Shown here: piece by piece, positions 4,793-58,653 of the stretch
Numbering within the stretch: the stretch's first letter is position 1
How the letters are laid out: each line of letters starts with the position of its first letter
Virus record (IMG/VR): IMGVR_UViG_3300010352_002811
Coordinates: 1 to 64,000 of that record
Length of the DNA stretch: 64,000 nt
Source: a virus
Lineage: Duplodnaviria; Caudoviricetes
Reading direction: 5' to 3' (one strand)
Made by a program: the position numbers and the translations under genes
Notes under the pieces: generated by a model
What the model was told of the DNA's origin: nothing
The model's input: only the letters and a program-made list of their open reading frames with translations
The model's database searches: none

Positions 4793-4822
4793 AGGTTCTC
4801 CTTTTCTTTTATTTAGAATTAT

Positions 4823-5113: not shown

Positions 5114-5116
5114 ATA

Positions 5117-5440: not shown

Positions 5441-5665
5441 TTACCATTTTCTCCTTGGACATGTTGAGTTTTGGTAATAGCATTTTCGTTTCAGTTCGGA
5501 CCATGGCCAGAATTTTGTTTCCGGGCATCCACATTCTCTACAATAGTTTCTGTGGTCTTTTTGAACATTCCAAACACAAGTTGAGCAGACATTAATCCTA
5601 TGAACATATGTCGTCATGTTTGTCTTGGGACCGAATATTGCTTTTAGAAATGAGAATATTTTCAT
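5441..5665 (-). CDS. Small Cys-rich protein (DUF6171-like)
   Basis: R-x-x-x-CxxC...CxECGC...CPxxKW; start reassigned to ATG 5665. Confidence 0.6.
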   Translation of the reverse strand: MKIFSFLKAIFGPKTNMTTYVHRINVCSTCVWNVQKDHRNYCRECGCPETKFWPWSELKRKCYYQNSTCPRRKW

Positions 5666-5667
5666 TT

Positions 5668-5997
5668 TTACATGTATGAATAATGGAACTTTTTTACCAG
5701 GGCATCCAATTCTCCACAAAGACGAATGACGTTTGACACTTGTTCTACTGAGTGGACTTTTGATTGGAGATAGATTTTTTCTTTTCCATACAATTCTGAA
5801 ACACCTTCTAGAATCGTAATGTAATAGTCTTTGATTTTTCTAACAATGAGTTCAGTATGATAATATTGGTATTTGAATTCTTCTGTCTCGTTATCATATT
5901 TTAGCTTCAGTTTTTCAAGTTTCTCAATCTCGGAATTTGAAAACTCTATATACTCTACCGTTTCATTCAGATGTTCTAAGTATTCTGAAAATCTCAT
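5668..5997 (-). CDS. Putative internal head protein (leader MRFSEYLEHLNE|T)
   Basis: Leader motif; directly downstream of portal. Confidence 0.55.
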   Translation of the reverse strand: MRFSEYLEHLNETVEYIEFSNSEIEKLEKLKLKYDNETEEFKYQYYHTELIVRKIKDYYITILEGVSELYGKEKIYLQSKVHSVEQVSNVIRLCGELDALVKKFHYSYM

Positions 5998-8523: not shown

Positions 8524-10005
8524 TTATATCTTTATCTGACTATCTGAAAATGGAAATCCTTGTTCTTCATAATATTGTTTTCTTGTTTTGAAATGTCTGT
8601 ATATGAAGTTATCAATCGTCTTATTTCCTTGACTATAACGAAGATCATCAACAACATCCCAAAGAACCATTATGTCTTTTGTCTCATGTTTTCTTAATCC
8701 TCTTCCAATCGACTGAAGCACTTTTATTTTTGATTTGTAAGAAGAGTAAAACACAATATTATGGAGTCTTGGTAAATTCCATCCAACAGCCAACGTAGCA
8801 TATGTTCCAATTATCAAAACATTTCCTTGACTCCTAGCAGCTATTCTAATATCTTCTCGTTCATCTGCTTTCACTTCACCATAAATCACATACACTTGGT
8901 GAGTTTTTCCATAATTCTCTTTCAAATATTCTTCGGTCTTTTTCAAATGGTCTATCTTATGCACCAGAATCAGAGTGTTTTCGTTGTTCTCATTTTTCTC
9001 AATTATATGGTCTAACACTTTTCTTCTTGGTTCATAACTTGTAATAAACTTCATCTCAGAATCATAATCTCTTGAACCAACACAATGAACTTTATCATAT
9101 TTCACAATCAAGTTATTAATCTTTATCTTACTCAAAACATCTCTATCAATCAATTCCTTTGTAGAGATGTTGAATGTGACTGGTCCAAGATATGATACAA
9201 CTGTTTGATAATCTGCCTTGTTCGGTGGCATTGTTCCTGTAAATCCATTTCTAATATCAGCATTCACACATTTCTTGCTGATTGATGCCATTTGATTTGA
9301 TTTCAGTCCATGTGTCTCATCAACCAAAAGAGCATCATATTGTTTGAAAAATGCTTCTTTCTTATACTGAACACTCTGCCATGTTGTAATCAAAACGTTC
9401 TTATTAAAATCTGGAGTAACCCCTGAATAAAGCTTAGTGACAAAATCATTTATAGTTGTCCATCCATATTCAATAAAGTCTGAATACATTTGGTTTACCA
9501 GAGCGACGTTAGGAACAATTAGAATTATCTTCTTGTTATGATTTATTAAGTAACGAATGATAGAATAAATGATAGCACTCTTTCCAGCACCAACAGAAGC
9601 TTCAATGATGGAACGTTTGTTGGATAGAGATTTTAGAATGGCTGTATGCTGATAATCTCTTGGATAAACTCCCGATTCAATTGAAAAAATAGAATCATAA
9701 AGATCGTAAAGTTCTTCTTCATCAATTTGGTTATAAAGGCAATGTGTGTCAAAATCAAGAGTGAGAGAAATGTCGTTGGCTTTGCAATATTTCGAAAGCT
9801 TGGGGAGAAGACCAATCGGAAGAAGATGGTCCTGTGGGTTGTAAGCAAATATTTTTCCATTCCAAAGCCCTTGTTTGAATTTTGGATGAAACATGAAATT
9901 TGCGGCCATCTCTGAGAAATAGTCTTTCAAATTCATCTCAATGCTTCTAGATGTGTGTATTTTTAAGTGAACTTCGTCTATTTTTCTTGCTATAACCTGT
10001 TCCAT
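8524..10005 (-). CDS. uvsW: UvsW-like SF2 DNA helicase
   Basis: PRDYQ, GAGKS, VDETH, GFTGT, LQSIGRGLR, WNGKI N-domain. Confidence 0.95.
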   Translation of the reverse strand: MEQVIARKIDEVHLKIHTSRSIEMNLKDYFSEMAANFMFHPKFKQGLWNGKIFAYNPQDHLLPIGLLPKLSKYCKANDISLTLDFDTHCLYNQIDEEELYDLYDSIFSIESGVYPRDYQHTAILKSLSNKRSIIEASVGAGKSAIIYSIIRYLINHNKKIILIVPNVALVNQMYSDFIEYGWTTINDFVTKLYSGVTPDFNKNVLITTWQSVQYKKEAFFKQYDALLVDETHGLKSNQMASISKKCVNADIRNGFTGTMPPNKADYQTVVSYLGPVTFNISTKELIDRDVLSKIKINNLIVKYDKVHCVGSRDYDSEMKFITSYEPRRKVLDHIIEKNENNENTLILVHKIDHLKKTEEYLKENYGKTHQVYVIYGEVKADEREDIRIAARSQGNVLIIGTYATLAVGWNLPRLHNIVFYSSYKSKIKVLQSIGRGLRKHETKDIMVLWDVVDDLRYSQGNKTIDNFIYRHFKTRKQYYEEQGFPFSDSQIKI

Positions 10006-10066: not shown

Positions 10067-10492
10067 TCAGACTTCTTCAGCAGTTTCGTCTGTTTCTGGC
10101 TCAGGCTCAACCTTCTTAGCAGCCTTCTCTTCTTCCTTCTTCTGACGCTCTTTGATGTTCTTGGAAAGAGAAACAAGCTTCTTCCCTGTGACATCTCTAA
10201 GTCCTTCGGAAATTCTTCTCATGGCTGTCAATTCTTCGTCAGTGAAAATCTTGTCCTTATTGTCGCAAGAATTCTTCACAGTGTTAACTAGTGTCCGAAT
10301 GTCAATCAAAGCACGTTTCGAATCACCAGAAGCATAAAGATTCCCCTTGGTCGAAACAACTTGGAAAAAATCAGCAAGCCGAGAGACAACTTCTGATAGA
10401 TTCTCAAAAACACTGGTCGCATTTCCAAAATCATCAACTGAGAAGTCCTCTTCTTCGTTGATCTGAGTCTTAACATATTCCTTAAAGTCCAT
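10067..10492 (-). CDS. Putative internal head protein (leader MDFKEYVKTQINE|E)
   Basis: TATAAATA 10516-10523; terminator 10024-10055. Confidence 0.6.
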   Translation of the reverse strand: MDFKEYVKTQINEEEDFSVDDFGNATSVFENLSEVVSRLADFFQVVSTKGNLYASGDSKRALIDIRTLVNTVKNSCDNKDKIFTDEELTAMRRISEGLRDVTGKKLVSLSKNIKERQKKEEEKAAKKVEPEPETDETAEEV

Positions 10493-41519: not shown

Positions 41520-42140
41520 TTATTTCCTATAATAAGTGTTAAATGTTGTGTTTGTTAATCCAGCATCAACAATCTTAGCTTTACCGTCAACAATTCCCCA
41601 ACTACTAATACGAACCAAATCTCCATATGGCATATCATAATTTATCATCAAATCCGCCACTTTATTTACTATACTATCTTCGTCTTCCCAATATTTCTTA
41701 GATTCGTCAGGAACCTTTTGTAGTCTTCCATCATAATATAGTTTAACATCGGTTAGAGCTTTTCCAAATGTTTTGAAATCCAAACCTGTCAATGTTTTGA
41801 ATTCTGATGGTTTTATCTTTGTTCCTTTTTTCACAATCAGCCAATAACAATCATCATTATCATCGCGGTCTTTCAATTCAGGTACCAATTCAGGATACAT
41901 TCTTTGTAAGCCGTAGTCTCCATCAGTTAGATTTTGTTCCAATCCTTTTTCATTCTTAGCAAGTTTTAGAACATATCCATCTTCAAGATCGAATACAATT
42001 CTTGACGAACCTTCTCCAAGCTTTTTTAGAAATTTTTTAGCATATTGAATCTTTTTTGAGAACGATGACAAGCTGTCCAATACTTTAGTATCAAATTTTT
42101 CTTCATTCTCAAGTAAAAGAATATAGTCGGTGAACTTCAT
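41520..42140 (-). CDS. Protein-kinase-like protein with CTS-like leader (MKFTDYILLLE|N)
   Basis: LGEGSSRIV, VLKLA, GDL...SWG, IVDAG. Confidence 0.75.
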   Translation of the reverse strand: MKFTDYILLLENEEKFDTKVLDSLSSFSKKIQYAKKFLKKLGEGSSRIVFDLEDGYVLKLAKNEKGLEQNLTDGDYGLQRMYPELVPELKDRDDNDDCYWLIVKKGTKIKPSEFKTLTGLDFKTFGKALTDVKLYYDGRLQKVPDESKKYWEDEDSIVNKVADLMINYDMPYGDLVRISSWGIVDGKAKIVDAGLTNTTFNTYYRK

Positions 42141-42400
42141 TAGAATCCGCCAGTATGTTCCTTAGAATAGTCAAACGCAGCTTTTAGATTAGAAACAATC
42201 AAATCACACTTCTTGATAGCATCTTCAATGTGCTTCTCTACTTCAGACTTGTTAGTAGAATTCTTTGCTCTGGTAATAGCTTCAGCAAGTTCCTTCACAA
42301 TGATTTTAGAATTCTTGATGTTGTTCGAAACAATCTTGTCTTCAGAACCTTCACAAACAAGTCCAAATAGTTTTTCAGCAGTTTCTAGATTATTTTCCAT
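42140..42400 (-). CDS. Hypothetical late protein
   Basis: Start reassigned to ATG 42400 (GGAG RBS). Confidence 0.55.
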   Translation of the reverse strand: MENNLETAEKLFGLVCEGSEDKIVSNNIKNSKIIVKELAEAITRAKNSTNKSEVEKHIEDAIKKCDLIVSNLKAAFDYSKEHTGGF

Positions 42401-42404
42401 TTTT

Positions 42405-42578
42405 TTAGTCTCTCCATGATAAAAGGTCAAGAGCAGCATTTCGGGTTTTTGTTACATCTACCTCGGATTCCTTCTTCTTACGTGCTTCTTCCTTGGCAGA
42501 CTCTTCCTTCAACTTTTCGATTGTGACTTTACGAATCTTCTCAGCCTCAATGATAAAGTCAAATTGGTCGTTATTCAT
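42405..42578 (-). CDS. 57-aa late protein (MNNDQFDFIIE|A...)
   Basis: Manual ORF; GAGGG RBS; TAAATA at 42598. Confidence 0.55.
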   Translation of the reverse strand: MNNDQFDFIIEAEKIRKVTIEKLKEESAKEEARKKKESEVDVTKTRNAALDLLSWRD

Positions 42579-45377: not shown

Positions 45378-48300
45378 ATGACGAGAGAAGATGCGATCAA
45401 AAATAGTATCGTTTATTTTGAAGGTGATGAATTGGCAGCAACAGTTTTTGTTGACAAGTATGCGCTAAGAGACGAGGATGGAAATATTCTTGAATCTACT
45501 CCTGACGATTTACACAAAAGACTTGCTACAGAATTTGCTAGGATTGAAGGAAAATATCCAAATCCAATGACAGAAGATGAAATATTTAATTTGTTAAAGG
45601 ATTTTGATAAAGTAGTTCCTCAAGGTTCTCCAATGGCAGGTATTGGAAACTCTTCTCAATTAATGAGTATTTCAAATTGTTTTGTTGTTGGCTCTCCAGA
45701 AGATTCTTATGGCGGTATTCTAAAATCTGACCAAGAATTAGCACAAATTTATAAGAGGCGCGGCGGTGGAGGTATTGATATTTCCACAATTCGCCCAAAG
45801 GGATTGAAGACAAATAATGCGGCAAAGACTACAGATGGGATTGGAGTATTTATGGAAAGATATTCCAATACCTGCCGTGAAGTTGCCGTTCAAGGCCGCC
45901 GAGCAGCTTTGATGATGTCAATCTCGGTACACCATCCAGAAGTTGAAACATTTATTAATATTAAACGAAACAAAACAAAGGTTACAGGGGCAAATATTTC
46001 TGTAAGATTGACAGATGCTTTTATGACGGCTGTTAAAAATGATACTGAATATGAACAGCGTTGGCCAATTGATTCAGATTCTCCACAAATTTCTCGTAAA
46101 GTAAATGCTCGTAGAATATGGAATCAAATTATTGAATCCGCTTGGGAATCTGCCGAACCGGGAATTCTTTTCTGGGATAATGTTTTGAATAATGGAACTG
46201 CTGATGCGTATCCTGAATTCAAGTCAATATCAACAAATCCATGTTTAGTTGGGGATACAAAAGTTTATGTTGCTGATGGTCGGGGAATTGTAACTATAAA
46301 AGAACTTTCAGATGCTGGTGAAGATGTTGATGTTTTTTGCTATGATTCTGAAAACAACGTGGTAATTCGAAAGATGCGTCATCCAAGAGTAACAGGCCAT
46401 AATGAGAAGATTTATAAAGTAACATTTGATGATGGAAATTCAGTAAGGACTACAGGAAATCACAAATTCCAATTAAAGAGCGGTGAATATAAGGAAGTTA
46501 AAGATTTACAGTTCAATGACCAGTTATCCACAATTGTTAGATTTGAAGATTCAATAGCGTATAAATTTGATACTCGTAAAACTTCAAAATATAGTCATTA
46601 TTTTTGGATTGATAATGATACAAAAATAAAAACAGAACATCGTTTAATTGCGGAAAATTCTTATGGCGATATTGATGGCCTTGTAATTCATCATATAGAT
46701 TTTAATTCAAAGAATAATGCTCCAGACAATCTAAAACCAATGACACGCGAAGCTCATGACAAATATCATGGCGAAATGATGCGTGGAGATAACAATCCAA
46801 TGCGTAGAGCAGCTACAGAATGGTCGGATGAAAAAAAGAAGGCATATTCAGAAAATATGTCAAAAGTAAAGTCTGGTTTCGGAAATGGCCATGTGTATGA
46901 AATAACAAATGACGAAATAAAAGAACATGCTGTTAAATTTACACAGCAATTAGGTAGGCGTTTCTCTTCAAAGGAATGGCAAGTGTACGCTAAAGAAAAT
47001 TCTCTTCCTAAATTGTTTACAAAATTCCGCCAAACTGAAGAATACACAAATCCTGTGGAATTGAGTTTTGTCGCGGCCAAAATAGCTGGATTAGAAAACC
47101 AGAATTATGACACACGCCTTCTTGAAACTCAGGCGAAGGCAGAAAGTCAAGGATACGAAACAAAGATTGAAAATTCTGAAGTTTTGGTTAAGAAGATTTG
47201 TGAAGTTTGTGGTGAAGAATTTTGGGTATCATTCTGGAATCGTGAGCAGGGAATATGTTCAATTAAATGCTCAATGGTTTATCTAAATTCTAATTCTGAA
47301 CGAACAGCTAAACGAGTTGCTGCTACCAAAAAAACATATTCTGAAAAACAAGAAATTACAAAAAATAAGATTCTTGACGAATATACAAGATTGAAGGCAA
47401 TTCTTGGAAGAAAACCAATGCTAAAGGAATTGGAAAAATCTTGTAAGGAAAATAATATTCCTATTAGACTAAGAACAAAATACGGATTTAAGTCTTTTGA
47501 TGAAATTCAAGAAAAAGCTGAATATCACAATCATAGAGTTGTGTCGGTTGTTGAAGATGGATATGAAACAGTTTATAATGGAACTGTAGATGATTTTCAC
47601 AATTTCTTCGTCGGTGGATTTGCTCTGAATGATGATAGAAATAGTGTTATATTTTTGAATAACCGGCAGTGTGGGGAACTCCCATTATCAAAAACAGATT
47701 CGTGCCGCTTGCTAGCTATGAATGTGTTGGGCTTTGTAAAGAACAAATATTTAGAAACTTCTTATTTTGATTGGGAAGAATTTGATATTGTTTGTAAAAA
47801 AGCTCATAGATTAATGGATGATATTATTGATATTGAGCTTGAACATGTTGAGAAGATTATCAACAAAATTCAAGATGACCCTGAAAGCGATGAAGTTAAG
47901 AGAACTGAACTGATGTTGTGGAATAGTATTAAAGAAGCATGTATGTCCGGTAGACGGTGTGGTATGGGAATAACTGCTCTTGGTGATGCTCTTGCCGCCC
48001 TTGGAATTAAATATGGAACATCCGAATCTATTGAACTGGTTGAGAAAATTTATAAGTCTCTTGAACTCGCCGCTTTCAAATCAACAATTGAATTGGCGCG
48101 GGACAGAGGAGCATTCCCACGTTATGAATACGAACTTGAAAAAAACCATAAGTTCATTTCAAAGATTATTGATAATTTGCCAGAAGAATATCAAGAAATG
48201 TATAAAATGTATGGACGCAGAAATATCGCACTAACAACTACCGCACCTACAGGAACAGTTTCTTTAGTAACTCAAACGTCTTCAGGAATCGAGCCAGTAT

Positions 48301-49256
48301 TTAGATTGTCATATAAGCGTCGTAAGAAGTTAAATCCTAATGAAAATGTAGAACCTGATTTTGTTGATGATGTTGGAGATAAATTTATAAATTATACAGT
48401 TTATCACCACGAATTGAAAAATTGGATGAAAATTACAGGCGAAACGGATGAAACAAAATCTCCTTGGTTTGGCGCTACTGCCGAAGATATCGATTGGATG
48501 GCTTCAGTTGATTTACAAGCGGCTGCTCAAAAATGGGTGTGCGCTTCAATTTCAAAGACCTGTAATTTACCAAATTCAGCAACCAAGGAACTCGTAGCAG
48601 ATGTTTATATGCGAGCTTGGGAAACTGGATGTAAGGGGTTCACAGTATACCGCGATGGATGTCGAGACGGAGTTCTTGTTACAAATGAATCAAAGAAAGA
48701 AGAAACTAAATTTGAACAAAAAGATGCTCCAAAACGACCAAACGAACTTGAATGCGACATCCATCATATTAAGGTGAAGGGAGAAAATTGGATAGTGTTT
48801 GTTGGCTTGTATGATGGCAAACCTTATGAAACTTTCGCTGGATTGTCTAAGTTTGTTTCGATTCCAAAGAAGGTTGCAAAGGGAACTCTTATAAAGCACA
48901 ATACTAAGAAATCAAACGGGTCTTCAATATACGATGTTTCTTATGTTGATGATGGAAATTTGGTTGAGATTAAGGATATTGTAAAAACTTTTGAAAATCC
49001 AACAGAAGGGGAATTTACAAGATTAATTTCATTGGCACTGCGGCATGGGACTCCAATACAATTCCTAACAGAGCAATTACAAAAAGATGAAAATAGTGAT
49101 ATGTATTCATTTAGTAAAGTTATTGCTCGTGTTTTGAAAGTGTATATTAAAGATGGTATCAAGGTAAAGGCGGTTTGCCCAAATTGTGGGGGGACTTTGA
49201 TTTATCAAGAAGGATGTCTTCGATGCCTAGACTGCTCGCACAGCAAATGCGGATAA
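45378..49256 (+). CDS. nrdJ: Class II (B12-dependent) ribonucleotide reductase with intein
   Basis: SNCFV, RRGGGG, GRRAALM, AEPGI, TNP/CGE, APTGT, SSGIEP, SISKT, TVYRDG, C-terminal TSCPD and Zn ribbon. Confidence 0.95.
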   Translation: MTREDAIKNSIVYFEGDELAATVFVDKYALRDEDGNILESTPDDLHKRLATEFARIEGKYPNPMTEDEIFNLLKDFDKVVPQGSPMAGIGNSSQLMSISNCFVVGSPEDSYGGILKSDQELAQIYKRRGGGGIDISTIRPKGLKTNNAAKTTDGIGVFMERYSNTCREVAVQGRRAALMMSISVHHPEVETFINIKRNKTKVTGANISVRLTDAFMTAVKNDTEYEQRWPIDSDSPQISRKVNARRIWNQIIESAWESAEPGILFWDNVLNNGTADAYPEFKSISTNPCLVGDTKVYVADGRGIVTIKELSDAGEDVDVFCYDSENNVVIRKMRHPRVTGHNEKIYKVTFDDGNSVRTTGNHKFQLKSGEYKEVKDLQFNDQLSTIVRFEDSIAYKFDTRKTSKYSHYFWIDNDTKIKTEHRLIAENSYGDIDGLVIHHIDFNSKNNAPDNLKPMTREAHDKYHGEMMRGDNNPMRRAATEWSDEKKKAYSENMSKVKSGFGNGHVYEITNDEIKEHAVKFTQQLGRRFSSKEWQVYAKENSLPKLFTKFRQTEEYTNPVELSFVAAKIAGLENQNYDTRLLETQAKAESQGYETKIENSEVLVKKICEVCGEEFWVSFWNREQGICSIKCSMVYLNSNSERTAKRVAATKKTYSEKQEITKNKILDEYTRLKAILGRKPMLKELEKSCKENNIPIRLRTKYGFKSFDEIQEKAEYHNHRVVSVVEDGYETVYNGTVDDFHNFFVGGFALNDDRNSVIFLNNRQCGELPLSKTDSCRLLAMNVLGFVKNKYLETSYFDWEEFDIVCKKAHRLMDDIIDIELEHVEKIINKIQDDPESDEVKRTELMLWNSIKEACMSGRRCGMGITALGDALAALGIKYGTSESIELVEKIYKSLELAAFKSTIELARDRGAFPRYEYELEKNHKFISKIIDNLPEEYQEMYKMYGRRNIALTTTAPTGTVSLVTQTSSGIEPVFRLSYKRRKKLNPNENVEPDFVDDVGDKFINYTVYHHELKNWMKITGETDETKSPWFGATAEDIDWMASVDLQAAAQKWVCASISKTCNLPNSATKELVADVYMRAWETGCKGFTVYRDGCRDGVLVTNESKKEETKFEQKDAPKRPNELECDIHHIKVKGENWIVFVGLYDGKPYETFAGLSKFVSIPKKVAKGTLIKHNTKKSNGSSIYDVSYVDDGNLVEIKDIVKTFENPTEGEFTRLISLALRHGTPIQFLTEQLQKDENSDMYSFSKVIARVLKVYIKDGIKVKAVCPNCGGTLIYQEGCLRCLDCSHSKCG
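46242..47669 (+). mobile_element. 476-aa intein with HNH endonuclease, ending in Gln
   Basis: TNP|CLVGDT...TGNH...EHRL...HHIDFNSKNNAPDNL...H...VYNGTVDDFHNF...NNRQ|CGE. Confidence 0.92.
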
Positions 49257-49336
49257 CCGGATAGATAATTCTAATAAACCCAATTTCAAAAGAGTTGGGT
49301 TTTGTTTTTATAAATACTATCAAACAGGAGAATAAA

Positions 49337-49963
49337 ATGAAGTTTAATGAATATGTTAACGTGTCAATGGTTTGCTCTGAACTGCTTGAATCTGTTGAGG
49401 AAACTTCTCTTCCAACAATGTGCGAATCTCTCGATCTCATGGAGCAGGAATTGAACGAACTTTTTGGACTTGGAAAGGTCGCTGAAAAGCTCAAGAGTCT
49501 GGACACCAAGGCTGATGAAAAGGTTGAAGACATCAAGAAGAAGGGCAAGGAATTTGCTTCCGACGCCAAGTATGTTGCTAAGAATCTTGGACAGGAAGCT
49601 AAGGAAAAGTGGGCGGATGCTAAGGAAGTTGCTCAGTCTCACAAGGAAATCGCGGTTGCTGCGAAGGACAAGCTCGTTTCTCTATTCTCAAAGTCTCAGA
49701 GTGCTTTTAAGGACATTTGGGGAGCCATTTCCAAGGAGAATCTTTCGGACGATCAGAAGTCAGTTTTGGCGGATCTTGCCATAGCTCAGCAGAAGATGAC
49801 CTCCGGAAAGTTTTTGAATGGCGATGATTCTGTCAAGGTTCTAGCCGCGATTCTTGCTGGAAAGGGCTCGGTTCCATCATCCAAGAAGTATCTCACCAAG
49901 CTTGAAGAGTTGAAGGCAATTCCTGGCATCGCGACTGTTCGGGTTTCTGCTCGCGTTAAGTAA
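49337..49963 (+). CDS. Probable abundant internal head protein (leader MKFNEY...LLE|S; LNE)
   Basis: TATAAATA 49309, AGGAG RBS, gp23-like codon bias, own terminator 49987-50014. Confidence 0.7.
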   Translation: MKFNEYVNVSMVCSELLESVEETSLPTMCESLDLMEQELNELFGLGKVAEKLKSLDTKADEKVEDIKKKGKEFASDAKYVAKNLGQEAKEKWADAKEVAQSHKEIAVAAKDKLVSLFSKSQSAFKDIWGAISKENLSDDQKSVLADLAIAQQKMTSGKFLNGDDSVKVLAAILAGKGSVPSSKKYLTKLEELKAIPGIATVRVSARVK

Positions 49964-50030
49964 GATTGATTGAAATTGTTTGAATGAAGGAGAGTCATTT
50001 GATTCTCCTTTTTTGTTCATAAATAATTAC

Positions 50031-50903
50031 ATGAAGTTTAAGAATTTTTATTTGACTGAGTCTTTGGAAAAAGTATATCATGCTTTAGATGTTCATCAAA
50101 TGATTTCTATTTTGAAGAACAATTCATTAGAACTATCTCCAAATGTTTCAAAAGTTGAGACAGAGATGGGAGCTGATACATATTATTATTTGTCAACTAT
50201 GAGAAACAAATCAGGTTCATATTTCCTTGGGGTTTCTAAAAATACAAAATATCCAATGAAGGATGTTTATTTTGAAATTGATTATGATTATTTGAAATCA
50301 AAGATGAAATCTGCTCCAGTTGATTATTGGAAAGCTGGACGAAAAGACAGTGAAGAAGAGGAACGTTTTTGGTCAGATGAAGACCACATTTCGGATGTTT
50401 CTAAATTCATCAAAAAGATTAATGTGTTGCTGATGGATTCTTTGTCAGACGAAGCCCGAAAGAAGCATATTGTAAATTTATACTGGCAAGCTAAGATGCG
50501 AAACATTCCAATTTTCTTTTATGACAATCCTCAGAATTTTGTGCTTGGTAAGAAACCATTAGATTTAAATTTTGATAATGATTATAATTTTGAACACCCT
50601 AAATCAGAATATGTTAACGATTTAGACGCTATCAATAAACTTATGAATGATAAAAAATTGGATGGGAAAGAAGTTAAAAGATTGAAAGATGTTATGAGAT
50701 ATGATGTGTATCGTTCGGATTTTATTGGGGCATTAACTCGCGAAGTTCATGGTAGTAGGAAAATGTTAACATCTGTAAATCGCGAATATATTAAAGATTT
50801 TATTGATTTGATGAAGAAATATAAGAGAAAAACTGTAAAAGAATTTGTTGACAATGATGTTCTTGATAAAATGATTGAACGAAAACTTTTACATAGGAAA
50901 TAA
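50031..50903 (+). CDS. ART-fold-like protein with leader MKFKNFYLTE|S
   Basis: VYH...ILKNN, YLSTMR, EEEER pattern (H-S-E type); start reassigned to 50031. Confidence 0.6.
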   Translation: MKFKNFYLTESLEKVYHALDVHQMISILKNNSLELSPNVSKVETEMGADTYYYLSTMRNKSGSYFLGVSKNTKYPMKDVYFEIDYDYLKSKMKSAPVDYWKAGRKDSEEEERFWSDEDHISDVSKFIKKINVLLMDSLSDEARKKHIVNLYWQAKMRNIPIFFYDNPQNFVLGKKPLDLNFDNDYNFEHPKSEYVNDLDAINKLMNDKKLDGKEVKRLKDVMRYDVYRSDFIGALTREVHGSRKMLTSVNREYIKDFIDLMKKYKRKTVKEFVDNDVLDKMIERKLLHRK

Positions 50904-50905
50904 AG

Positions 50906-51835
50906 ATGGGATTCAAACAATTTTATCTTTTGGAGTCTGGACAAAAACTAATTGGTTACCATTCTACCAATTCTAAATTTGAAGCATTTGACCATAAGTT
51001 TACAGGCCATGTTGGATTTTATTTTACTCCAGAAAAATATTTTGAACATCCTGAACATAAAAATTCCACACTTGATTATTCTAAAGGTAAAAAGTACACG
51101 TTAAAATGCGAACTAGATATTAAAAATCCAATTCCTAATGACGTGTTTGTAGATGTCATGAACAAGGCTTTTGGTGGAAATCCTAGAAAAATGGCTATAG
51201 AACAATTCAAAAAACTTGGATATGACGGATATATTGCCAAAGCTCAAATTTGGGTGTTTGAACCAGAGCAGATTAAAATTGTAGATGCTGTTGATAATGA
51301 AATAAACGAAGCGCCAATTATTGATGACCGATATGGTGAAACAGCAAAAATGCCAATATATACAAAACCGGAAATTGGAGGATTCTATACAAAATATAAA
51401 GAATCAAAACTTTTTAAAAAAATAGATAATATTGAGATGCGAATGTTAGATTATATAAAAGATGAGATATATCTTTATTATGTTGTGAATGGAAAACCTG
51501 CCGCTGTTTTAGTTTACAAATTCCTTGATAAAAAAGCTAAAGATTTCAACAAATATCCGATGGTAGGATGGATGTACACAACTCCCGAATATTTGAAAAA
51601 AGGAATTCAACAAGAGCTTCATAATTTTCTAATGGCATATCATAAAGGCATTTTGGTTGATACTACATTATCCCCGGAAGGATTTAAGTTTTACAAGAAA
51701 TGGGCGGAACCATTTTACACATATTCTTTTGATAATGATGATACTTATAGCAAAATAAAAAAAGTTGATTGGAACAAAGTAAAAAGCAATCGTCATGAAA
51801 GATTTGTTATTCTTAAAAATGAGGTGGACGATTGA
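50906..51835 (+). CDS. ART-PolyVal-like + GNAT two-domain protein, leader MGFKQFYLLE|S
   Basis: YHST..F..F...GFYFT...IKNP...GYDG...VFEPEQIK; linker INE|A; MYTTPEYLKKGI...LSPEG. Confidence 0.72.
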   Translation: MGFKQFYLLESGQKLIGYHSTNSKFEAFDHKFTGHVGFYFTPEKYFEHPEHKNSTLDYSKGKKYTLKCELDIKNPIPNDVFVDVMNKAFGGNPRKMAIEQFKKLGYDGYIAKAQIWVFEPEQIKIVDAVDNEINEAPIIDDRYGETAKMPIYTKPEIGGFYTKYKESKLFKKIDNIEMRMLDYIKDEIYLYYVVNGKPAAVLVYKFLDKKAKDFNKYPMVGWMYTTPEYLKKGIQQELHNFLMAYHKGILVDTTLSPEGFKFYKKWAEPFYTYSFDNDDTYSKIKKVDWNKVKSNRHERFVILKNEVDD

Positions 51836-52140
51836 GTTTCAAGAAGCTTTATCTAACTGAATCGGAACAACCTCTTCAATTTTCATTATCAAAGAAATTG
51901 AAAGTTGAGAAATTCGAATTCAGAAAAGACGGAACAAACTTTATCATAAAAACGTTAACTCTTCCAGAAATTAATGTTAAGCTTGGAGATGGTGTTCGAG
52001 CAATGTTGGAAATTTATTCATATTGCGATAAAAAAGGTTATGATGTTGTTCTAGATTGTAATTATCAGCAGTTTGTAGATTCTGTTGGTTTAGATTATTA
52101 TGTTGAAGGAGTTAGAGTTCAAGTAGCGTTGGTTCTTTAA
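51832..52140 (+). CDS. Small GNAT-like protein, leader MSFKKLYLTE|S
   Basis: TTG start; LP....GDG..AM..I..YCDK.G..V.L. Confidence 0.5.
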   Translation: MSFKKLYLTESEQPLQFSLSKKLKVEKFEFRKDGTNFIIKTLTLPEINVKLGDGVRAMLEIYSYCDKKGYDVVLDCNYQQFVDSVGLDYYVEGVRVQVALVL

Positions 52141-52151
52141 TAAATAACTAT

Positions 52152-53102
52152 ATGAACTTCAAAACTTTTTATTTGACAGAATCTGAAAATACTCATCTTG
52201 GTTATAAAATTGTAAACTATGATGGAAAACAAGCATACTCAATCGCAGACAATAAAGTTAAATATTCTCTTAAAAAAGGAACAATTGAAACTGGGAAAAT
52301 ATATCTAGGAACCTCGGAGAAATACGCTCGAGCTTATTACTCAACAGAATCTTCAGACCCAGATGACCCACAAGAATTACTTTTGGTATATGAAATCAAT
52401 CCATCTGATATTATACAGGGAAATCTAGAAGACAAAGACCAACTGACAGGTGGTAGTGAAATTATAGTCAGAAAAGCAAAATTAAAATCTGCTTATAATA
52501 TCACGAAAAAAGAATATATTATTGAAATGCCATCTATTAACAAATCAAATTCTGGCTGGTCTGAGAGTCCTGATCATTGGTCCGGAATTCAAGATAGATA
52601 TAAATTAACAAAATTAGTCAAAGAATATAAAATTGGAAATACTGTATACCAGATACGTCAGAATAAAAGTAAAAATATTCTAGATGTATATTGTCTATCT
52701 TCAGAATTGTTATATGGAAATTCTAAAATAATTGGAGTTCTACAGTTAAATAAATTAGACACAGATGATAGTATAAAACTTAAACGATTGAAATATCCAA
52801 AAATTTCATGGGTTGCTGTTCGCCCGGAATATAGAAATAAAGGAATTGCTTCTGGATTATATATTTCTGCTATAGATTATTTCGGTGGCCTTGTTTCAGA
52901 TTCTTCTTTAACCAAACGCGATGATGGCTCAGGTTCATTAAATGTTTGGACGTCTCTTCAAAAATCAAAATATGTTTATGCTTTTGATGGTGACAATTTT
53001 AAAGAACTTGATTCGCATGATATTGGTTCAGACGAATATCACAAATCAGATATTCTATTTGTCGCGTCTGAAAATAAAATCAAAGGAGCTATAGAAGAAT
53101 GA
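52152..53102 (+). CDS. Two-domain protein (ART-like? + GNAT), leader MNFKTFYLTE|S
   Basis: GYKIV...IYLG...EIIV; linker IIE|M; VAVRPEYRNKGIASGLY...LVSD. Confidence 0.7.
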   Translation: MNFKTFYLTESENTHLGYKIVNYDGKQAYSIADNKVKYSLKKGTIETGKIYLGTSEKYARAYYSTESSDPDDPQELLLVYEINPSDIIQGNLEDKDQLTGGSEIIVRKAKLKSAYNITKKEYIIEMPSINKSNSGWSESPDHWSGIQDRYKLTKLVKEYKIGNTVYQIRQNKSKNILDVYCLSSELLYGNSKIIGVLQLNKLDTDDSIKLKRLKYPKISWVAVRPEYRNKGIASGLYISAIDYFGGLVSDSSLTKRDDGSGSLNVWTSLQKSKYVYAFDGDNFKELDSHDIGSDEYHKSDILFVASENKIKGAIEE

Positions 53103-54001
53103 GATTTTTAGAATTTTATCTATCAGAAGCCTCTCAAGAATATAACATTGCTAAGACCCTGGCTGAAAAATTATCAAAGTTATTAGATGAGATAGAATAT
53201 TCAGCAGAGAAGAATCCAGATTATCTTAAGAAATATAAATATAGTAATTCAGGACATTATCATATTCCATTAAAAGATTTTATAAAGAAAATAAACTTTC
53301 CAGAAGATTCGGTTTTTTCTCACTTGAAAGATGGGAAATTATATCTTGAATATGGATATCGTGATGATTCAACAACACCATACCTATTAGCGGTTACTAG
53401 AGAAGATGGACATACATATAGAACAAAAGCTGGAGCATACTTTGACCAAGACAAATATTTTCTTGGAATTCATTTACCATTTATTGACCCAAAAACCGAA
53501 CTTCCATATCAAGGATTTAGAACTCACTGGAAAAATCTTCTGATACATGAATTAACTCATTATATTCAAGATTCTAAAGATTCGTCTAAATATGGCACAT
53601 CAACATTATCATCAGAAGAATGGCATAAAGATAAAAAAGAACAAGAAGCGTATTTACATGAATTATACTCTCTATTTCAAAATTGGCTATCTGAAGAACT
53701 GTCAGACTTGAAGAATTTGCGAAATGATACAGAATACAAAAAATCTGATATTCCTGAGTATGTAAAAAAGAATAATAGATTGGTTGACTTATTTTCTTCA
53801 GAAGAGATGTTTGAACGAAAATATCCAGTTGGTGAGATTTTGTTAGATAATGATAAACAAAAGAGAAGAATAAATTATCTTGCCGGAAATTTGAAAGATG
53901 TTTACAAAAAGTTTATTCATGATACATATATTGAATTGAAAAAAGAATTCAGGAACGTTCTACCTACTAAGAAATTAAGTTATTCGGGAGTAAAGAAGTG
54001 A
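53099..54001 (+). CDS. Zincin-like metallopeptidase, leader MRFLEFYLSE|A
   Basis: LIHELTHYIQD ... EQEAY. Confidence 0.75.
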   Translation: MRFLEFYLSEASQEYNIAKTLAEKLSKLLDEIEYSAEKNPDYLKKYKYSNSGHYHIPLKDFIKKINFPEDSVFSHLKDGKLYLEYGYRDDSTTPYLLAVTREDGHTYRTKAGAYFDQDKYFLGIHLPFIDPKTELPYQGFRTHWKNLLIHELTHYIQDSKDSSKYGTSTLSSEEWHKDKKEQEAYLHELYSLFQNWLSEELSDLKNLRNDTEYKKSDIPEYVKKNNRLVDLFSSEEMFERKYPVGEILLDNDKQKRRINYLAGNLKDVYKKFIHDTYIELKKEFRNVLPTKKLSYSGVKK

Positions 54002-54684
54002 TGTTCAAAGATTTTTATTTTCTTGAAAGTCTCCAAATTTCTTTATCCAAAAAAGCTTGGGATAAGTTGTCTTCTGAAGCTCAACAAGCTATAATATCTT
54101 GGGAAGCTTCTAATTGGGTTGGTGGAACTTTAGAAAAACATATAAAGGCGAATGACTCTGTCGCAAAAGAAATAAAACAAGTAATGAAACCAATTCTAGA
54201 TTCTATAAAAGGTGATACCGTAACGCTTTATAGAGGGGCAACCAAGGAAATAATGGACGAACCAAGATTTTTACAGTCTTGGACTTCTTCAGAAAAAGTT
54301 GCGAAACATTTTGCCGGATTAAGTTCAAGTCAAACAAAAGATATTCCATTAACTTATCCAACATATACTCAAAAAGAAATTGATGATGTTGTTGAAAAAT
54401 TTAATAAAACAGGTTATGTTAAATTTGACAATCAATATTTTATAGTTGACAAAAAGAATCCAAAATATTACAACATATATGATAAAGAACGAAATCTTGT
54501 AACTGATAGCGAAACGAGCGAATTCAGAAATAACATAACTTCCAGTTATGATGAACGAATAGATTTGAACAATAAACGAACCAAAGACAAAGTCGTACTA
54601 AAACGAACATTTGATAAAAACAAAATCATCTGGATATCTAACAATCTAGATTCTAAAGAATATATTGTCAAGGTAGATGAATGA
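54001..54684 (+). CDS. R-S-E ADP-ribosyltransferase-like protein, leader MFKDFYFLE|S
   Basis: TLYRG, QSWTSS..VA..FA, C-terminal KEYIV. Confidence 0.7.
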   Translation: MFKDFYFLESLQISLSKKAWDKLSSEAQQAIISWEASNWVGGTLEKHIKANDSVAKEIKQVMKPILDSIKGDTVTLYRGATKEIMDEPRFLQSWTSSEKVAKHFAGLSSSQTKDIPLTYPTYTQKEIDDVVEKFNKTGYVKFDNQYFIVDKKNPKYYNIYDKERNLVTDSETSEFRNNITSSYDERIDLNNKRTKDKVVLKRTFDKNKIIWISNNLDSKEYIVKVDE

Positions 54685-54699
54685 CCCATAAATAGTTCT

Positions 54700-56211
54700 A
54701 TGAATAGTGACACTCTTTATAGAACGCTTTACCTACTTGAAAATGACATTGCTAGGCTGGACGAAGCATTAGACCAGCAAAAGATAGATTCATTAACATC
54801 TCTTCTTCCATCGGCTACAGCAGATTCAATTATTCAGCTTCATAAACAAAATAATGATAATGGTGTTATGTCTCAATTGAATTCATATCTAAGAACTGCG
54901 ATTGGTAAAAAGGCTTCGTCCATTGATGATGCTATAAAGATTTTGAAACAAGATAAGTCCGAAATCACTTCAATTACTAATATTTTACTTAGAGCATCAA
55001 TGCCAAAAGACCAAGTTGATAAAATGACAAGTGTTGAAAAAAGAAGAACTCTGAACACACTCGCAGAAAAAAGCGGAATTAGCACAAAAGGAAAACCCAC
55101 TGCTGAGGTAACAAGCGCGTTAAGTAATGTTCTTGCTGTTAAAAAGGCATCTCAAGATAAAACAACATCAGCTACAGGAGAATTTAATAGAACCAAAAAT
55201 GTTCAAGCAACTGAACCATTCCCCGGCAAGCGTCAAATTTTCATAAACAATTACAAAAAGACATTAGCTCTTGGATGGCCTGGAGAACCTATTAAAGTTA
55301 AAGGTGGAACCGCAGACAATCCCGAAATTGAGCAAACTGTTGGCAAATTAATTCCATTCAATGTTGGTGCTAAAATTGGAACAAAATTGACAAACGCAAT
55401 TCCAGGCACAAAAGTTCTTCCTCTCTGGATAAAAACTGCGAAGAATTTGGTTTATAATAAGTTCAAGCAAGACCCAACAGGTTTGAAGAAGTTGCTTGAC
55501 GCTGTAAATGATATAATTGAAAAGAATAAGCAGTACAAATTATCTAAGCGTGTTGGCTTTAGAGATGTTTTCAAATCTTTAGGAAATTCATTCTTAGCTA
55601 AGTTTGGTGCTAGTGATAAGGATTTGGCTGTATTTAATTGGCTCGTCACAAAAGCCGTTGGTATGGACATTTTTGAATTCCAGAAACTCATTCTCGAAGA
55701 AGTCATGTCAGCAATAGATATGACAGATGAACGACTTTTGAAAATGGAAAATGTTGCTAAAGGTTTGAAGAGAATGTTTGAAAGAGCCCCTGAAGCGAAT
55801 AAGTTTTCAATCTCTTCATTAAAATCATCTCAATCTTATGATGGTGGGTATAAAGTTTGGTATGTAATCAAATCAAATGTCAAACCTCCAACAACATCAA
55901 CAATTGCGAGCCCTATGGAATTTTATCTTAGAATGCTTGAAGAATATATTAAACTTCCTGCTGGTAAAAAGTGGACAGAAGTGCCATCTGAAAAAGATAT
56001 TAGAAATGAACAAATTAAATTGAGAGATTATAGCATTGGTCGCTCAAAAGAAAAATATTCTTATGATGATACTGAAGATGGTCCTTTGAGTTGTGTTGAT
56101 GAAGAGAAACAAGGAGACAAATTGATAGGAAAACAGTTTATGTACCCGGTCTTCTTGGAACGAAATGGCCTTTATATTTACGTAACATATAACCCGGAGA
56201 GAGAAGAATGA
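54700..56211 (+). CDS. Hypothetical late protein (..LYLLE|N, LDE|A)
   Basis: TAAATA 54689 five nt upstream of the ATG. Confidence 0.65.
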   Translation: MNSDTLYRTLYLLENDIARLDEALDQQKIDSLTSLLPSATADSIIQLHKQNNDNGVMSQLNSYLRTAIGKKASSIDDAIKILKQDKSEITSITNILLRASMPKDQVDKMTSVEKRRTLNTLAEKSGISTKGKPTAEVTSALSNVLAVKKASQDKTTSATGEFNRTKNVQATEPFPGKRQIFINNYKKTLALGWPGEPIKVKGGTADNPEIEQTVGKLIPFNVGAKIGTKLTNAIPGTKVLPLWIKTAKNLVYNKFKQDPTGLKKLLDAVNDIIEKNKQYKLSKRVGFRDVFKSLGNSFLAKFGASDKDLAVFNWLVTKAVGMDIFEFQKLILEEVMSAIDMTDERLLKMENVAKGLKRMFERAPEANKFSISSLKSSQSYDGGYKVWYVIKSNVKPPTTSTIASPMEFYLRMLEEYIKLPAGKKWTEVPSEKDIRNEQIKLRDYSIGRSKEKYSYDDTEDGPLSCVDEEKQGDKLIGKQFMYPVFLERNGLYIYVTYNPEREE

Positions 56212-56408
56212 AATTTAGCGAATATGTTGAAATGATTAATACCACTGAAGTTAATGAAGATGACAATCCACAGCAATTGGCTCAAATCAAAGCTATTGAC
56301 TCTCAGATTGATGCGAAGAAAAAGCAGATTGAATCTTTGAATAAGCAGCTCGCCCAATTGGTTCAGAAGAAAGCATCTCTTGGGGGAATGGTTGATAAGG
56401 AACTGTAA
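56208..56408 (+). CDS. Small coiled-coil protein, leader MKFSEY...VNE|D
   Basis: Leader motif; coupled ORF. Confidence 0.6.
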   Translation: MKFSEYVEMINTTEVNEDDNPQQLAQIKAIDSQIDAKKKQIESLNKQLAQLVQKKASLGGMVDKEL

Positions 56409-57532
56409 TGTTTTCTGACAGCTATCAGTTTTTATTCGAAGCTACTCCATTAAAAAATAAGGGATTTGTAACAGAAGCTCTTGTTGCTATTGCTATCTTT
56501 CTAAAATTTAAGAAACGCGGAGATAAAGTTTTTTACTCCGACATTGAAAAATATATCAAGTTTCTAAGAACAATTTATACTGTAGGCTCTTTGAAACAAA
56601 ATGGCGTCACAATTCATGAAAATTATGCCATGGTCAAAGATTCGGAAGATAAGAATATTAAAGATAAACTACGATTGAAAATAAAATTGATGAATCGGTC
56701 TTTGGAATATTTAATGGGCCATCCAGGAACTACAGAATTCGATCCTGAAAACCATCGTTATTCTCTTGATTTTGGAGAAGAAATGTATTCCGTCGCCGCA
56801 TTTGTTAACTCTGACCATGTTGCTAATTATGTTAAAAAGGTAATTACAAATAAAGAGAAAAATATTATTGAGATTGCTGCGGATGGATTATCAAATAACA
56901 ATTCTGTAAAAACTGATGTCTGGGTTGAAGTTGATGGCAAGAAAATCCCAATGTTTGACTTTTCTATTAAAACAAGAAACACTCAGCAATTGTCTCAACA
57001 TGATAACGCTGATAAAAAAGATAAGCAAATAAAGTTTTGGAATGACTTGTGCGGAATTGATGTTTCTTCGTATTTTAGAAAAACTGGAGCAGAATCTTTG
57101 GAAGATATAGATGATTACTTCAGGTACATTTGCTCAAAGATGGAAAAGCAGTTGACAACCCAGAGAGCGGATGCTACCTTTGTTACAAGATTGGCAGAAG
57201 GAATCAAAAATTCGGCCACTCTTGGAAATGACGTCATTCTGTTGTCGATAGATGGTACGACAAAAGGAAAATTCCGAACATTTGGTTTCAAGTCATTTGT
57301 CGAAGCATTGGTTGAAACAGGAATTGACTTGAGTTGTAAGATGTCTCCCGAAGTAAATAAAGAAGGTTCAAAATCAAAACAAACTTGGTTGAAAATCTAC
57401 GACAGTTCAGACGAATCACCCTCTGGAGTTCTTGTAAAGATTCGTTACAGGAGCGACAGAACCATGACCGCTATCACCATTGAAAAAGGACCACTGCTTG
57501 AACGACTCACGGAACTCATGCCAGCGTTTTGA
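56408..57532 (+). CDS. Putative PD-(D/E)XK nuclease-like protein, leader ..YQFLFE|A
   Basis: EALVA helix, KTDVWV...FSIK. Confidence 0.45.
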   Translation: MFSDSYQFLFEATPLKNKGFVTEALVAIAIFLKFKKRGDKVFYSDIEKYIKFLRTIYTVGSLKQNGVTIHENYAMVKDSEDKNIKDKLRLKIKLMNRSLEYLMGHPGTTEFDPENHRYSLDFGEEMYSVAAFVNSDHVANYVKKVITNKEKNIIEIAADGLSNNNSVKTDVWVEVDGKKIPMFDFSIKTRNTQQLSQHDNADKKDKQIKFWNDLCGIDVSSYFRKTGAESLEDIDDYFRYICSKMEKQLTTQRADATFVTRLAEGIKNSATLGNDVILLSIDGTTKGKFRTFGFKSFVEALVETGIDLSCKMSPEVNKEGSKSKQTWLKIYDSSDESPSGVLVKIRYRSDRTMTAITIEKGPLLERLTELMPAF

Positions 57533-57533
57533 T

Positions 57534-58025
57534 TTGATTGCCGCAATGACTTATGATAGAGTCATAGGTAATGGCTCCCAGCTTCCTTGGCACATTCCAG
57601 AAGAGCTAAAATTCTTCAAAGAAATGACGACCAACAAGACTCTTATCATGGGAGCGAATACACTAAAGTCAATTGGGAAAACTCTACCAAACAGAAATCA
57701 TGTTATCATTTCTTCAAAGCCTCAATCTGAATTTGATTCTTTTGGAAATGTTGCTGTGTGTAATGATATCAATTCAGCAATTACCAAGGCTAAATCTTTC
57801 AGAACAGATGTTTTTGTAGTTGGGGGTTTGAGTATTTACAAGCAATTTCTCGAAACAAATATCTGCGACTCTTTGATAATTTCATGGATTAAAGATAAGT
57901 ATGCTGGAGATGTTATTTTTCCCAATTTGATTCATTACCCATACAAGGTAGATTCTATTGTAAAAGAATCTTCCGAATTCATAACAATGAGATACATCCG
58001 AAATGATAATAAACATAGACGTTAA
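57534..58025 (+). CDS. folA: Dihydrofolate reductase
   Basis: IAA...VIG..LPWHIPEEL.FFK..T, MG, LPNR, VGG..IY; start uncertain (TTG 57534 or 57480). Confidence 0.93.
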   Translation: MIAAMTYDRVIGNGSQLPWHIPEELKFFKEMTTNKTLIMGANTLKSIGKTLPNRNHVIISSKPQSEFDSFGNVAVCNDINSAITKAKSFRTDVFVVGGLSIYKQFLETNICDSLIISWIKDKYAGDVIFPNLIHYPYKVDSIVKESSEFITMRYIRNDNKHRR

Positions 58026-58653
58026 AAATAGGAATGGCGAAGGAACTATAAAACTTCCCAGGTATTTGATTTCTGAAAAAGAACAACCAATCGGAGTTGT
58101 GTTTGGAAAGTTCTCGCCTTGGACTGGAGAAAATGGCCACGCACGTTTATTAAATTTGTTGAAGAAAAACGGTATTAATAAATTCTACATTGTATCTCCA
58201 AAGCGTGATGATAAGATTGCTGAAAAATACGACGCTAATATTTTTTCTCCAGAAGCAAGGAAGAAAATTGTAGAACGAGTTGTTACAGATGATGGCTTCC
58301 TTGGTTATATTCAAGCAGATTCAAATAACATAATGGGTGTGATTAAAGAACTTATTCATAAAATCAAACGCCCTGTATTTGTTGTTGGTCCTGATAGAGA
58401 AACAATGTTTGATAGGCACTTTGTTATTTTTGGACACGAACCTGTTAAAGATTCTAATAACAAGGATTTTGGAAAGCCGGAAGCACTTGTTTATACTGGA
58501 CCGAGAGAAGTTTCCGGAACTCTTGTTAGGAAATCTTTGGTTGAGAATGATTTTGAAACATTCACAGACTTGACGAAATATGATAAAGAAACATTTGAAT
58601 TTATGCGAAATCTGATGACAAAAAGTTTCAAGCAATTTTATGGAGGCAAATAA
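58003..58653 (+). CDS. HIGH-superfamily cytidylyltransferase-like protein
   Basis: FGKFSP....GH, VGPDR, VSGTLVR. Confidence 0.78.
   Translation: MIINIDVKNRNGEGTIKLPRYLISEKEQPIGVVFGKFSPWTGENGHARLLNLLKKNGINKFYIVSPKRDDKIAEKYDANIFSPEARKKIVERVVTDDGFLGYIQADSNNIMGVIKELIHKIKRPVFVVGPDRETMFDRHFVIFGHEPVKDSNNKDFGKPEALVYTGPREVSGTLVRKSLVENDFETFTDLTKYDKETFEFMRNLMTKSFKQFYGGK

Follow-up and report, generated by a model that had tools for sequence, protein, structure and literature searches.

Tagged Gene Array and Its Leader

The window considered here, the first 64 kb (64,000 nucleotides) of a 94,443-bp virus contig with an estimated completeness of ~42% (IMG/VR record IMGVR_UViG_3300010352_002811), contains ten consecutive plus-strand open reading frames (ORFs) at 49337–57532 whose proteins have unrelated bodies and a common N-terminal leader, called the tag below. 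The ORFs start at 49337, 50031, 50906, 51832 (TTG), 52152, 53099, 54001, 54700, 56208 and 56408. The class-1 leader has the form M-x-F-x-x-(F/L)-Y-(L/F)-x-E and a longer variant the form M-x-F-x-E-Y...Φ-x-E, where Φ is a hydrophobic residue. Each class-1 leader ends in [LF]-x-E, and the next residue is S, A or N. An earlier reading of the same DNA, made from its letters and translations (the sequence-only reading), had described these ten leader-bearing ORFs with unrelated bodies, and both the ORFs and the N-termini it quoted are confirmed. ORF7, listed above with the start 54001, is a real ORF that probably begins at GTG 53998 instead, a start that restores the 10-residue leader M-M-F-K-D-F-Y-F-L-E.

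The tag is restricted to ORF starts. When all 94 kb of the contig are translated in six frames, the open frames contain F-x-x-[FLY]-Y-[LF]-x-E seven times and F-x-[ED]-Y-[VIL] six times. Each of these matches lies at residue 3 of an ORF, directly behind M-x, and neither core motif lies inside any protein. By BLASTP the bodies behind the tags are unrelated; only ORF3 and ORF5 share a GNAT half, at 27% identity. In the leaders, different synonymous codons are used (Leu TTG/CTT/CTA/CTG, Phe TTT/TTC, Glu GAA/GAG) while the residues are kept, so that selection acts on the peptide.

Eight more tagged starts proposed by the sequence-only reading are real and all lie on the minus strand (4583, 5113, 5440, 5997, 8499, 10492, 42140 and 42578). 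Four further tagged genes are found past the window on the same contig (starts 70752, 77211, 93450 and 94021), and the total on this partial genome is 21–22 tagged non-shell ORFs. On the contig, only head-module and late-promoter genes bear the tag, which is missing from genes for replication and nucleotide metabolism; it is thus not equally common on early or replication genes, the distribution that the sequence-only reading had named as speaking against itself.

Putative Late-Expression Signals

The array sits between the genes for ribonucleotide reductase (RNR; 1292 aa, intein-bearing, 45378–49256, upstream of the array) and dihydrofolate reductase (DHFR; 57480–58025, downstream), within an early/middle nucleotide-metabolism region. 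A terminator-like hairpin directly after RNR (49276–49302, plus strand) ends the upstream early/middle unit and is followed by a T4-type late promoter box, TATAAATA, at 49309–49316 on the plus strand, 28 nt before the ATG of ORF1. The same box lies 13–35 nt ahead of gp23 (2396), uvsW (10018) and the tagged genes 8499 and 10492. A second terminator-like hairpin (49986–50011, plus strand) follows ORF1, and behind it a TAAATA-N5-ATG arrangement (50020–50033, plus strand) places the late box CATAAATA 5 nt before the ATG of ORF2, which has no Shine–Dalgarno (SD) sequence. Since the two hairpins bracket ORF1, this gene forms a one-gene late unit, and the bracketing suggests that it is expressed much above the downstream cargo genes.

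TAAATA is found within 40 nt upstream of 11 of the 21 tagged genes, compared with 16 of 122 others (Fisher p = 1.6e-4), and about half of those 16 are head genes or lysozyme. The sequence-only reading had called the array late, and this label is supported by the motifs, with TATAAATA at 49309 as it is ahead of head genes. By its promoter and terminator motif matches, the array appears to be a late unit inside an early region.

TAAATA stands exactly 5 nt before an SD-less ATG three times in the window (50020–50033, 52141–52154 and 54689–54702) and three times elsewhere on the contig (70741, 93439 and 94010), and all six genes encode tagged proteins. Within the window, the TAAATA-N5-ATG pattern has 5 matches, compared with 1.6 expected. 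With a T4-like spacing, transcription would start at or beside the A of the ATG, and these late mRNAs may be leaderless. The ORF7 homologue on one relative, L048 (L and P numbers denote fetched relative loci and proteins), has a like arrangement, CTAAATA-TCAAC-ATG.

Head Module and Tagged Genes outside the Array

The source phage is a very divergent T4-like myovirus; between its major capsid protein and the gp23 of cyano- and pelagimyophages, identity is only ~34%. Its head genes lie on the minus strand and include gp23 (1051–2361, profile match Gp23), a gp22-like scaffold (2427–3368, T4_CASP 7.5e-13), a prohead protease of the T4 gp21 type (3501–4151, Peptidase_S77 1.2e-22) and the portal gp20 (6006–7679, Portal_T4), with uvsW at 8524–10005 on the same strand. 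The N-terminus of the protease itself reads ...FEYLTE/A (a slash marks the end of the leader here and below). No protein of the proteome is richer in Φ-x-E[small/acidic] sites than the scaffold (5.4 per 100 aa, compared with a mean of 1.06), which fits the expectation for a substrate of a gp21-type protease.

Four small tagged prohead-core ORFs (starts 4583, 5113, 5440 and 5997; 4263–5997, minus strand) lie between the protease and the portal; in T4, the core genes 67 and 68 occupy this place. A tagged 264-aa ORF (7705–8499, minus strand) has the leader MDLLSECYNYVVLLE/S and its orthologue in L002 has the canonical leader MNFKQFYLKE, while a tagged acidic 141-aa ORF (10067–10492, minus strand) has the leader MDFKEYVKTQINE/E; a TATAAATA box stands upstream of both. 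A small late-type unit (41520–42578, minus strand) consists of 42578 (57 aa, leader MNNDQFDFIIE/A), an untagged 99-aa ORF and 42140 (206 aa, leader MKFTDYILLLE/N). The PDB sequence search with 42140 gave only a 0.03 match to the SteC kinase, which is a weak lead. The gene at contig position 93450 encodes a P-loop kinase (AAA_33, Zeta_toxin). A 702-aa protein encoded at contig 70752–72860 (L008 6752–8860), behind TAAATA-N5-ATG, starts with MSNFNSFYNDGANFLIE/Q and probably is an additional large tagged cargo protein; this late gene received no Pfam assignment.

Predicted Products of the Array

The first gene, ORF1 (49337–49963, plus strand as are all ten; 208 aa), has a long leader, MKFNEYV...ELLE/S, and is the conserved first gene of arrays, with homologues in L001, L026 and L011 at 37–50% identity. 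Its product, Lys/Ala-rich, conserved and encoded between terminators, may be an abundant internal protein, the bulk one among those associated with the DNA.

ORF2 (50031–50903; 290 aa, leader MKFKNFYLTE/S) has an N-terminal domain (~8–172) with the ADP-ribosyltransferase (ART) fold, nearest to Tpt1/KptA and DarT. The AlphaFold model has a pLDDT of 79, with the leader disordered (below 50 for residues 1–11). It aligns with yeast Tpt1 (7yw4) at a VIA Z of 10.8 and an rmsd of 2.7 over 111 residues and with DarT at a VIA Z of 8.4–8.6, and the top 24 rows are almost all ART-fold proteins; the best Foldseek E-value is only 3e-3. Across 22 homologues, H17, S55, R58 and E108/110/111 do not vary and are candidates for residues of the catalytic type (H or R, then S/T, then E). 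Sequence searches of the PDB with ORF2, ORF7 and ORF10 returned no matches.

ORF3 (50906–51835; 309 aa, leader MGFKQFYLLE/S) consists of an ART-PolyVal domain, an internal joint I-N-E135/A136 and a GNAT module. The ART-PolyVal match (9e-6, 26.9 bits) is under the Pfam cut-off of 31.2, and PF18760 is precomputed for an identical protein. ORF4 (51832–52140; 102 aa) has a TTG start with an SD sequence and the leader MSFKKLYLTE/S. In ORF5 (52152–53102; 316 aa, leader MNFKTFYLTE/S), an N-module is followed by an internal relic leader, EYIIE125/M126, and by a GNAT module, which is a free tagged ORF in L001 and matches Pfam Acetyltransf_1 at 26.4 bits, above the gathering cut-off of 20.7.

ORF6 (53099–54001; 300 aa, leader MRFLEFYLSE/A) has an HExxH motif and a downstream E-x-E-A that are invariant in five homologues, and the motif suggests a zincin-like protein; the Pfam search gave no profile match, MPTase-PolyVal included. 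In ORF7 (53998–54684; 227–228 aa, leader (M)MFKDFYFLE/S), the invariant TLYRG, QSWTSS and E220 suggest an ART of the R-S-E type. This call stays at the motif level because the model (pLDDT 62, and below 50 in the putative ART core) is too poor for a fold search.

The last three genes are ORF8 (54700–56211; 503 aa, leader ...TLYLLE/N), which encodes a basic protein and is conserved in all arrays, ORF9 (56208–56408; 66 aa, leader MKFSEYV...VNE/D), which encodes a small coiled-coil protein, and ORF10 (56408–57532; 374 aa, leader MFSDSYQFLFE/A). ORF10 may have a HaeIII-like restriction-endonuclease fold, a lead given by a language-model score of 0.93 and a structural TM of 0.49/0.59. A tblastn search against phages found no match to ORF10 and the related-loci search gave no result; orthologues were found by BLAST against the fetched relative loci.

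For the array as a whole, megablast against GenBank phages gave no match, and the PHROGs search gave only families of 'unknown function' or weak tape-measure noise. The sequence-only reading had listed ART-like, GNAT, zincin, kinase and nuclease-like payloads. The list holds for the ART fold of ORF2, the ART-PolyVal and GNAT modules of ORF3, the GNAT module of ORF5, the HExxH motif of ORF6 and the P-loop kinase at 93450; the kinase at 42140 and the nuclease of ORF10 are weak leads, and ORF7 is a putative ART by its motifs.

Relatives and Module Joints

A scan of relatives for the motif, which the sequence-only reading had proposed, indicates that the tag and the locus are retained and the cargo is exchanged. 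In IMGVR_UViG_3300029288_001754 (L001/L012), a tagged array lies behind the corresponding RNR, again of 1292 aa. The end genes of this array are orthologous to ORF1, ORF8, ORF9 and ORF10 (47–65% identity), its middle cassettes differ from those of the window array, and the ORF2 orthologue is placed elsewhere. Further versions of the array are present in L036, L039, L011/L021, L026 and L050. A degenerate DNA pattern for M-x-F-K-x-F-Y-L-x-E matched 36 IMG/VR contigs; in 26 of these the match coincides with a real ORF start, and several of the matching contigs carry 3–8 tags. The fetched loci together contain 82 unique tagged ORFs, whose bodies group into 49 families. Proteins identical to those of this genome are encoded on a 100.6-kb contig.

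Two cultured phages also bear such leaders. Alishewanella phage vB_AspM_Slickus01 (L047, OQ508957.1 88337–97245) has six adjacent ORFs starting with MKIxxLYESxLxE, and in Vibrio phage K566 the homologue of ORF2 has the start MKKFNEFANELAE/A; the ORF2 homologues of both phages thus have leaders of their own. The ORF2-type ART-fold family occurs in Vibrio, Dickeya, Pseudomonas and Alishewanella phages. Three of the six Slickus01 ORFs are ORF2-type ART-fold homologues, and all six are annotated 'hypothetical protein'.

Comparison of free and fused modules between phages revealed nine module junctions that lie exactly on Φ-x-E. The body of ORF6 (ASQEYNIAK) follows FYLSE/ here, QLNE/ in a 595-aa protein of L039 and IITE/ in a 395-aa protein of L036. 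The N-module of ORF5 appears as FYLTE/SENTHLGYKIV here and as EILNE/SEEQSYFGYKIV in L039, and the internal EYIIE125/MPSINKS of the same ORF is the counterpart of FYLLE/MPKIIKG, the leader and first body residues of a free ORF in L001. In P0043, an ORF3-type ART is joined at NKIDE/MASLNS to a second module that is a free tagged ORF in L001 (FYLEE/MASLNS), and in P0021 a full relic leader, ESFYLTE/SLQTVYHAL, precedes a body of the ORF2 type. In ORF3, P0044 and P0043 the ART module ends in I-x-E every time, I-x-E also follows it in L001, and the core ORFs 4583 and 5113 are a single ORF in L002 with the joint ISE/A. Three-module proteins are found in L039 (595 aa) and as P0043 (437 aa). With such a site only about once in 100 residues, it is very unlikely that nine exact coincidences arose by chance, and ORF3 and ORF5, with their junctions on Φ-x-E, are best read as two-module polyproteins. 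The split-gene organization envisaged by the sequence-only reading therefore applies to most modules, which are separate, but not to ORF3, ORF5 and several relatives, which are short polyproteins with internal Φ-x-E joints.

The two leader subclasses that it distinguished, one on enzymes and the other mostly on small or core-like proteins, both exist but co-occur in L050, and the division between enzymes and small core proteins is only a tendency. The idea that the leader type follows the phage lineage rather than the cargo is not clean either, as L050 carries both MRFKEFYLTE and MKTFKEFxESYLxE. On L048, another T4-like contig, a leaderless ART-PolyVal protein is encoded at 6280–6786 in an early-type region, whereas the ORF7 homologue there has a leader and a late box. 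Effector families may accordingly serve either in packaged or in early-expressed form.

Comparison with Known Delivery Systems

The T4 internal proteins (IPs) offer the closest likeness in the tag itself. In GenBank NC_000866, the leader of IPII and IPIII is MKTYQEFIAE/A and that of IPI is MKTFKEFTSTTTPVSTITE/A (MKTFKEF...ITE). The T4 capsid-targeting sequence (CTS) and the class-1 leader both have 10 residues, with an aromatic residue at position 7, L or I at 8 and Glu at 10; in the T4 CTS, positions 4 and 7 serve targeting and positions 8 and 10 processing (PMC9026906). ORF2 orthologues on other contigs start with MKTFKEFxESYLxE/S, of which the first seven residues are those of IPI. The CTS of IPI, IPII, IPIII and Alt is cut off by gp21 (Mullaney & Black 1996, as cited in PMC13326640; PMC3012670, PMC9026906), the internal proteins of T-even phages are diverse and have only the CTS in common (PMC3012670, PMC9026906), and T4 Alt and the IPs, which take the same route, are injected into the host (PMC9026906). 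The T4 core proteins are processed too and mostly leave the head (PMC9026906). The likeness to the T4 CTS drawn by the sequence-only reading thus stands, both in the leaders and in the gp21-type protease and gp22-type scaffold that this genome encodes; late-box motifs, variable unrelated bodies and ART cargo are shared as well.

The differences from T4 lie in scale and organization. T4 has about eight head-internal proteins, whereas at least 20 tagged ORFs are found here on 42% of a genome, ten of them in one late unit within an early region. The cargo is mostly enzyme-like with 25–55 kDa, unlike the small basic internal proteins of T4, and some of it consists of short polyproteins with putative internal cut sites. 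No homology of the bodies to IPI–III or Alt was detected.

Polyvalent proteins, with 2–15 effector domains, are predicted to enter the host along with the DNA for immediate action (Iyer et al. 2017, PMC5512222), and head-packaged ARTs as well as polyvalent proteins with ART, GNAT, peptidase and kinase domains have been published (PMC5512222, PMC9503650). The tagged cargo appears to draw on the same vocabulary of ART-PolyVal, GNAT, HExxH peptidase-like and kinase domains, and ORF3, ORF5, the L039 protein and P0043 have the multi-module build, although the cargo here is mostly single-module. It differs in that the modules are mostly separate genes with an N-terminal tag instead of a fusion to a large virion protein, and in that the prohead protease would separate the modules at Φ-x-E, compared with an in-chain MPTase.

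Proteases of the phiKZ/SPN3US type cut at small-x-Glu (A/S/G-x-E), and their substrates are not known to share a single portable decapeptide. The motif here differs from theirs and is of the T4 type, hydrophobic-x-E. In these giant phages, a gp21-related protease processes many head-internal proteins after Glu, and the products are ejected (PMC5694885, PMC7411985, PMC10052503).

Proposed Mechanism and Alternatives

The reading that we prefer, with a probability of about 0.7, is that the tag is the version of the T4 CTS used by this phage lineage and that the cargo consists of capsid-targeted internal proteins trimmed by the protease. The steps of docking, cutting, staying in the head and being injected are inferred. 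Late in infection, the tagged proteins would be made from T4-type late promoters, and the aromatic N-terminal part of the tag would dock them on the gp22-type scaffolding core during prohead formation. The gp21-type serine protease would then cut after the Glu of Φ-x-E, releasing the mature proteins inside the head, and the same cut would split the fused cargo modules of ORF3 and ORF5. The cargo would stay with the DNA, be expelled into the next host and act before phage gene expression. The modules all start at a tag or a cut site and could therefore be exchanged, split and fused between phages without loss of delivery. A wider proposal, advanced tentatively at somewhat under even odds, makes the prohead-protease site a universal joint, so that whatever module starts at a tag or Φ-x-E site would be loaded, released and delivered, and makes the array the T4-lineage counterpart of polyvalent proteins. 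It would bring in a DarT/Tpt1-like ART directed at nucleic acid, GNATs, an HExxH protein and perhaps a restriction-type nuclease, among others, ahead of the expression of any phage gene.

Several points weigh against the preferred reading. The phage is uncultured and known here only as sequence, and with only ~42% of the genome on the contig, the remainder could encode further partners of the tag. At least ten cargo species of 5–55 kDa must fit into the head volume beside the DNA, and some tagged proteins may be parts of the scaffold core, broken down and lost instead of being injected. A bare Φ-x-E within residues 5–22 is present in 49 of 142 ORFs and is by itself a weak motif; the atypical leaders (54700, 56408, 8499 and 42578) therefore rest mainly on orthologue conservation. 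In ORF1 and some of the long leaders, the position of the cut cannot be fixed exactly.

The tag could instead be a signal for core assembly or a propeptide only, so that the proteins are cut and mostly degraded or expelled before DNA packaging, as T4 gp22, gp67 and gp68 are, or so that the leader keeps toxic enzymes inactive until the cut, and none would be an injected effector. The same leader on small acidic core-type ORFs beside the protease and the processing and loss of most T4 core protein from the head (PMC9026906) agree with such a role. It is nevertheless judged unlikely, because the array members have 25–55 kDa, are enzyme-like (ART fold, GNAT, HExxH) and, unlike the scaffold, have few internal Φ-x-E sites; their domain vocabulary is that of proteins argued to be packaged in the head and injected (PMC5512222, PMC9503650), and T4 Alt and the IPs, on the same route, are injected (PMC9026906). 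The incomplete contig (only ~42%) would leave room for another phage enzyme or chaperone that recognizes the leader, as in ribosomally synthesized and post-translationally modified peptides or as a modification tag. The contig has no Radical_SAM match, however, and the tag follows the gp21 rule at its end, resembles the T4 CTS residue by residue and is present on head-core proteins; at fusion joints it is reduced to a mere Φ-x-E, and this shrinkage suits a protease site more than a longer recognition peptide, which makes an enzyme of this kind highly improbable.

It would be just as surprising if the conservation served the nucleic acid, as a 5' coding element of leaderless mRNAs or as a homology patch for cassette recombination. 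Although several tagged genes have TAAATA-N5-ATG without an SD sequence and the cassettes are clearly shuffled, the residues are kept while synonymous codons vary freely, tagged genes with an ordinary SD sequence bear the same peptide, and the peptide motif is also retained at internal joints, which lie far from any 5' end. Chance, or residual similarity among recent paralogues, could draw on the GNAT half common to ORF3 and ORF5, but the lack of internal motifs in six frames, the unrelated bodies and the 49 tagged body families leave this explanation a negligible share.

The portable-tag cargo system of the sequence-only reading is thus supported by all of its predictions that in silico work could check, and its principle is already in print (PMC3012670, PMC9026906). 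The CTS principle itself is not new, and the case here is an enlarged, modular form of it. What is added comprises more than 20 tags on under half of a genome, a dedicated ten-gene unit of late type within an early region, mostly enzyme-sized cargo, the interconversion of split and fused modules exactly at the protease motif and the occurrence on many uncultured contigs; a literature search found no published description of such an expanded tag system.

Should the tagged proteins prove to be packaged, this lineage would illustrate the reach of the T4 CTS principle: the genome would be delivered together with a large and exchangeable stock of ready-made enzymes, and the head protease would double as a module separator. 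Packaging would also provide a sequence rule to predict injected effectors, as candidates for anti-defence or host takeover, in uncultured T4-like phages. It would supply new effector candidates, such as the widely conserved Tpt1/DarT-like ART-fold family, and natural tag variants for protein packaging in engineered T4-type capsids.

Genes Flanking the Array

The intein of the RNR upstream of the array contains an HNH endonuclease (Intein_splicing 4e-13, HNH_3 2.8e-9), and the RNR of the L001 relative is of equal length (1292 aa). Behind DHFR, an untagged gene at 58003–58653 encodes a protein whose C-terminus, ...KSFKQFYGGK, is a near-copy of the tag core. This C-terminus lies just before the start of the next gene and may be the relic of a cassette border.

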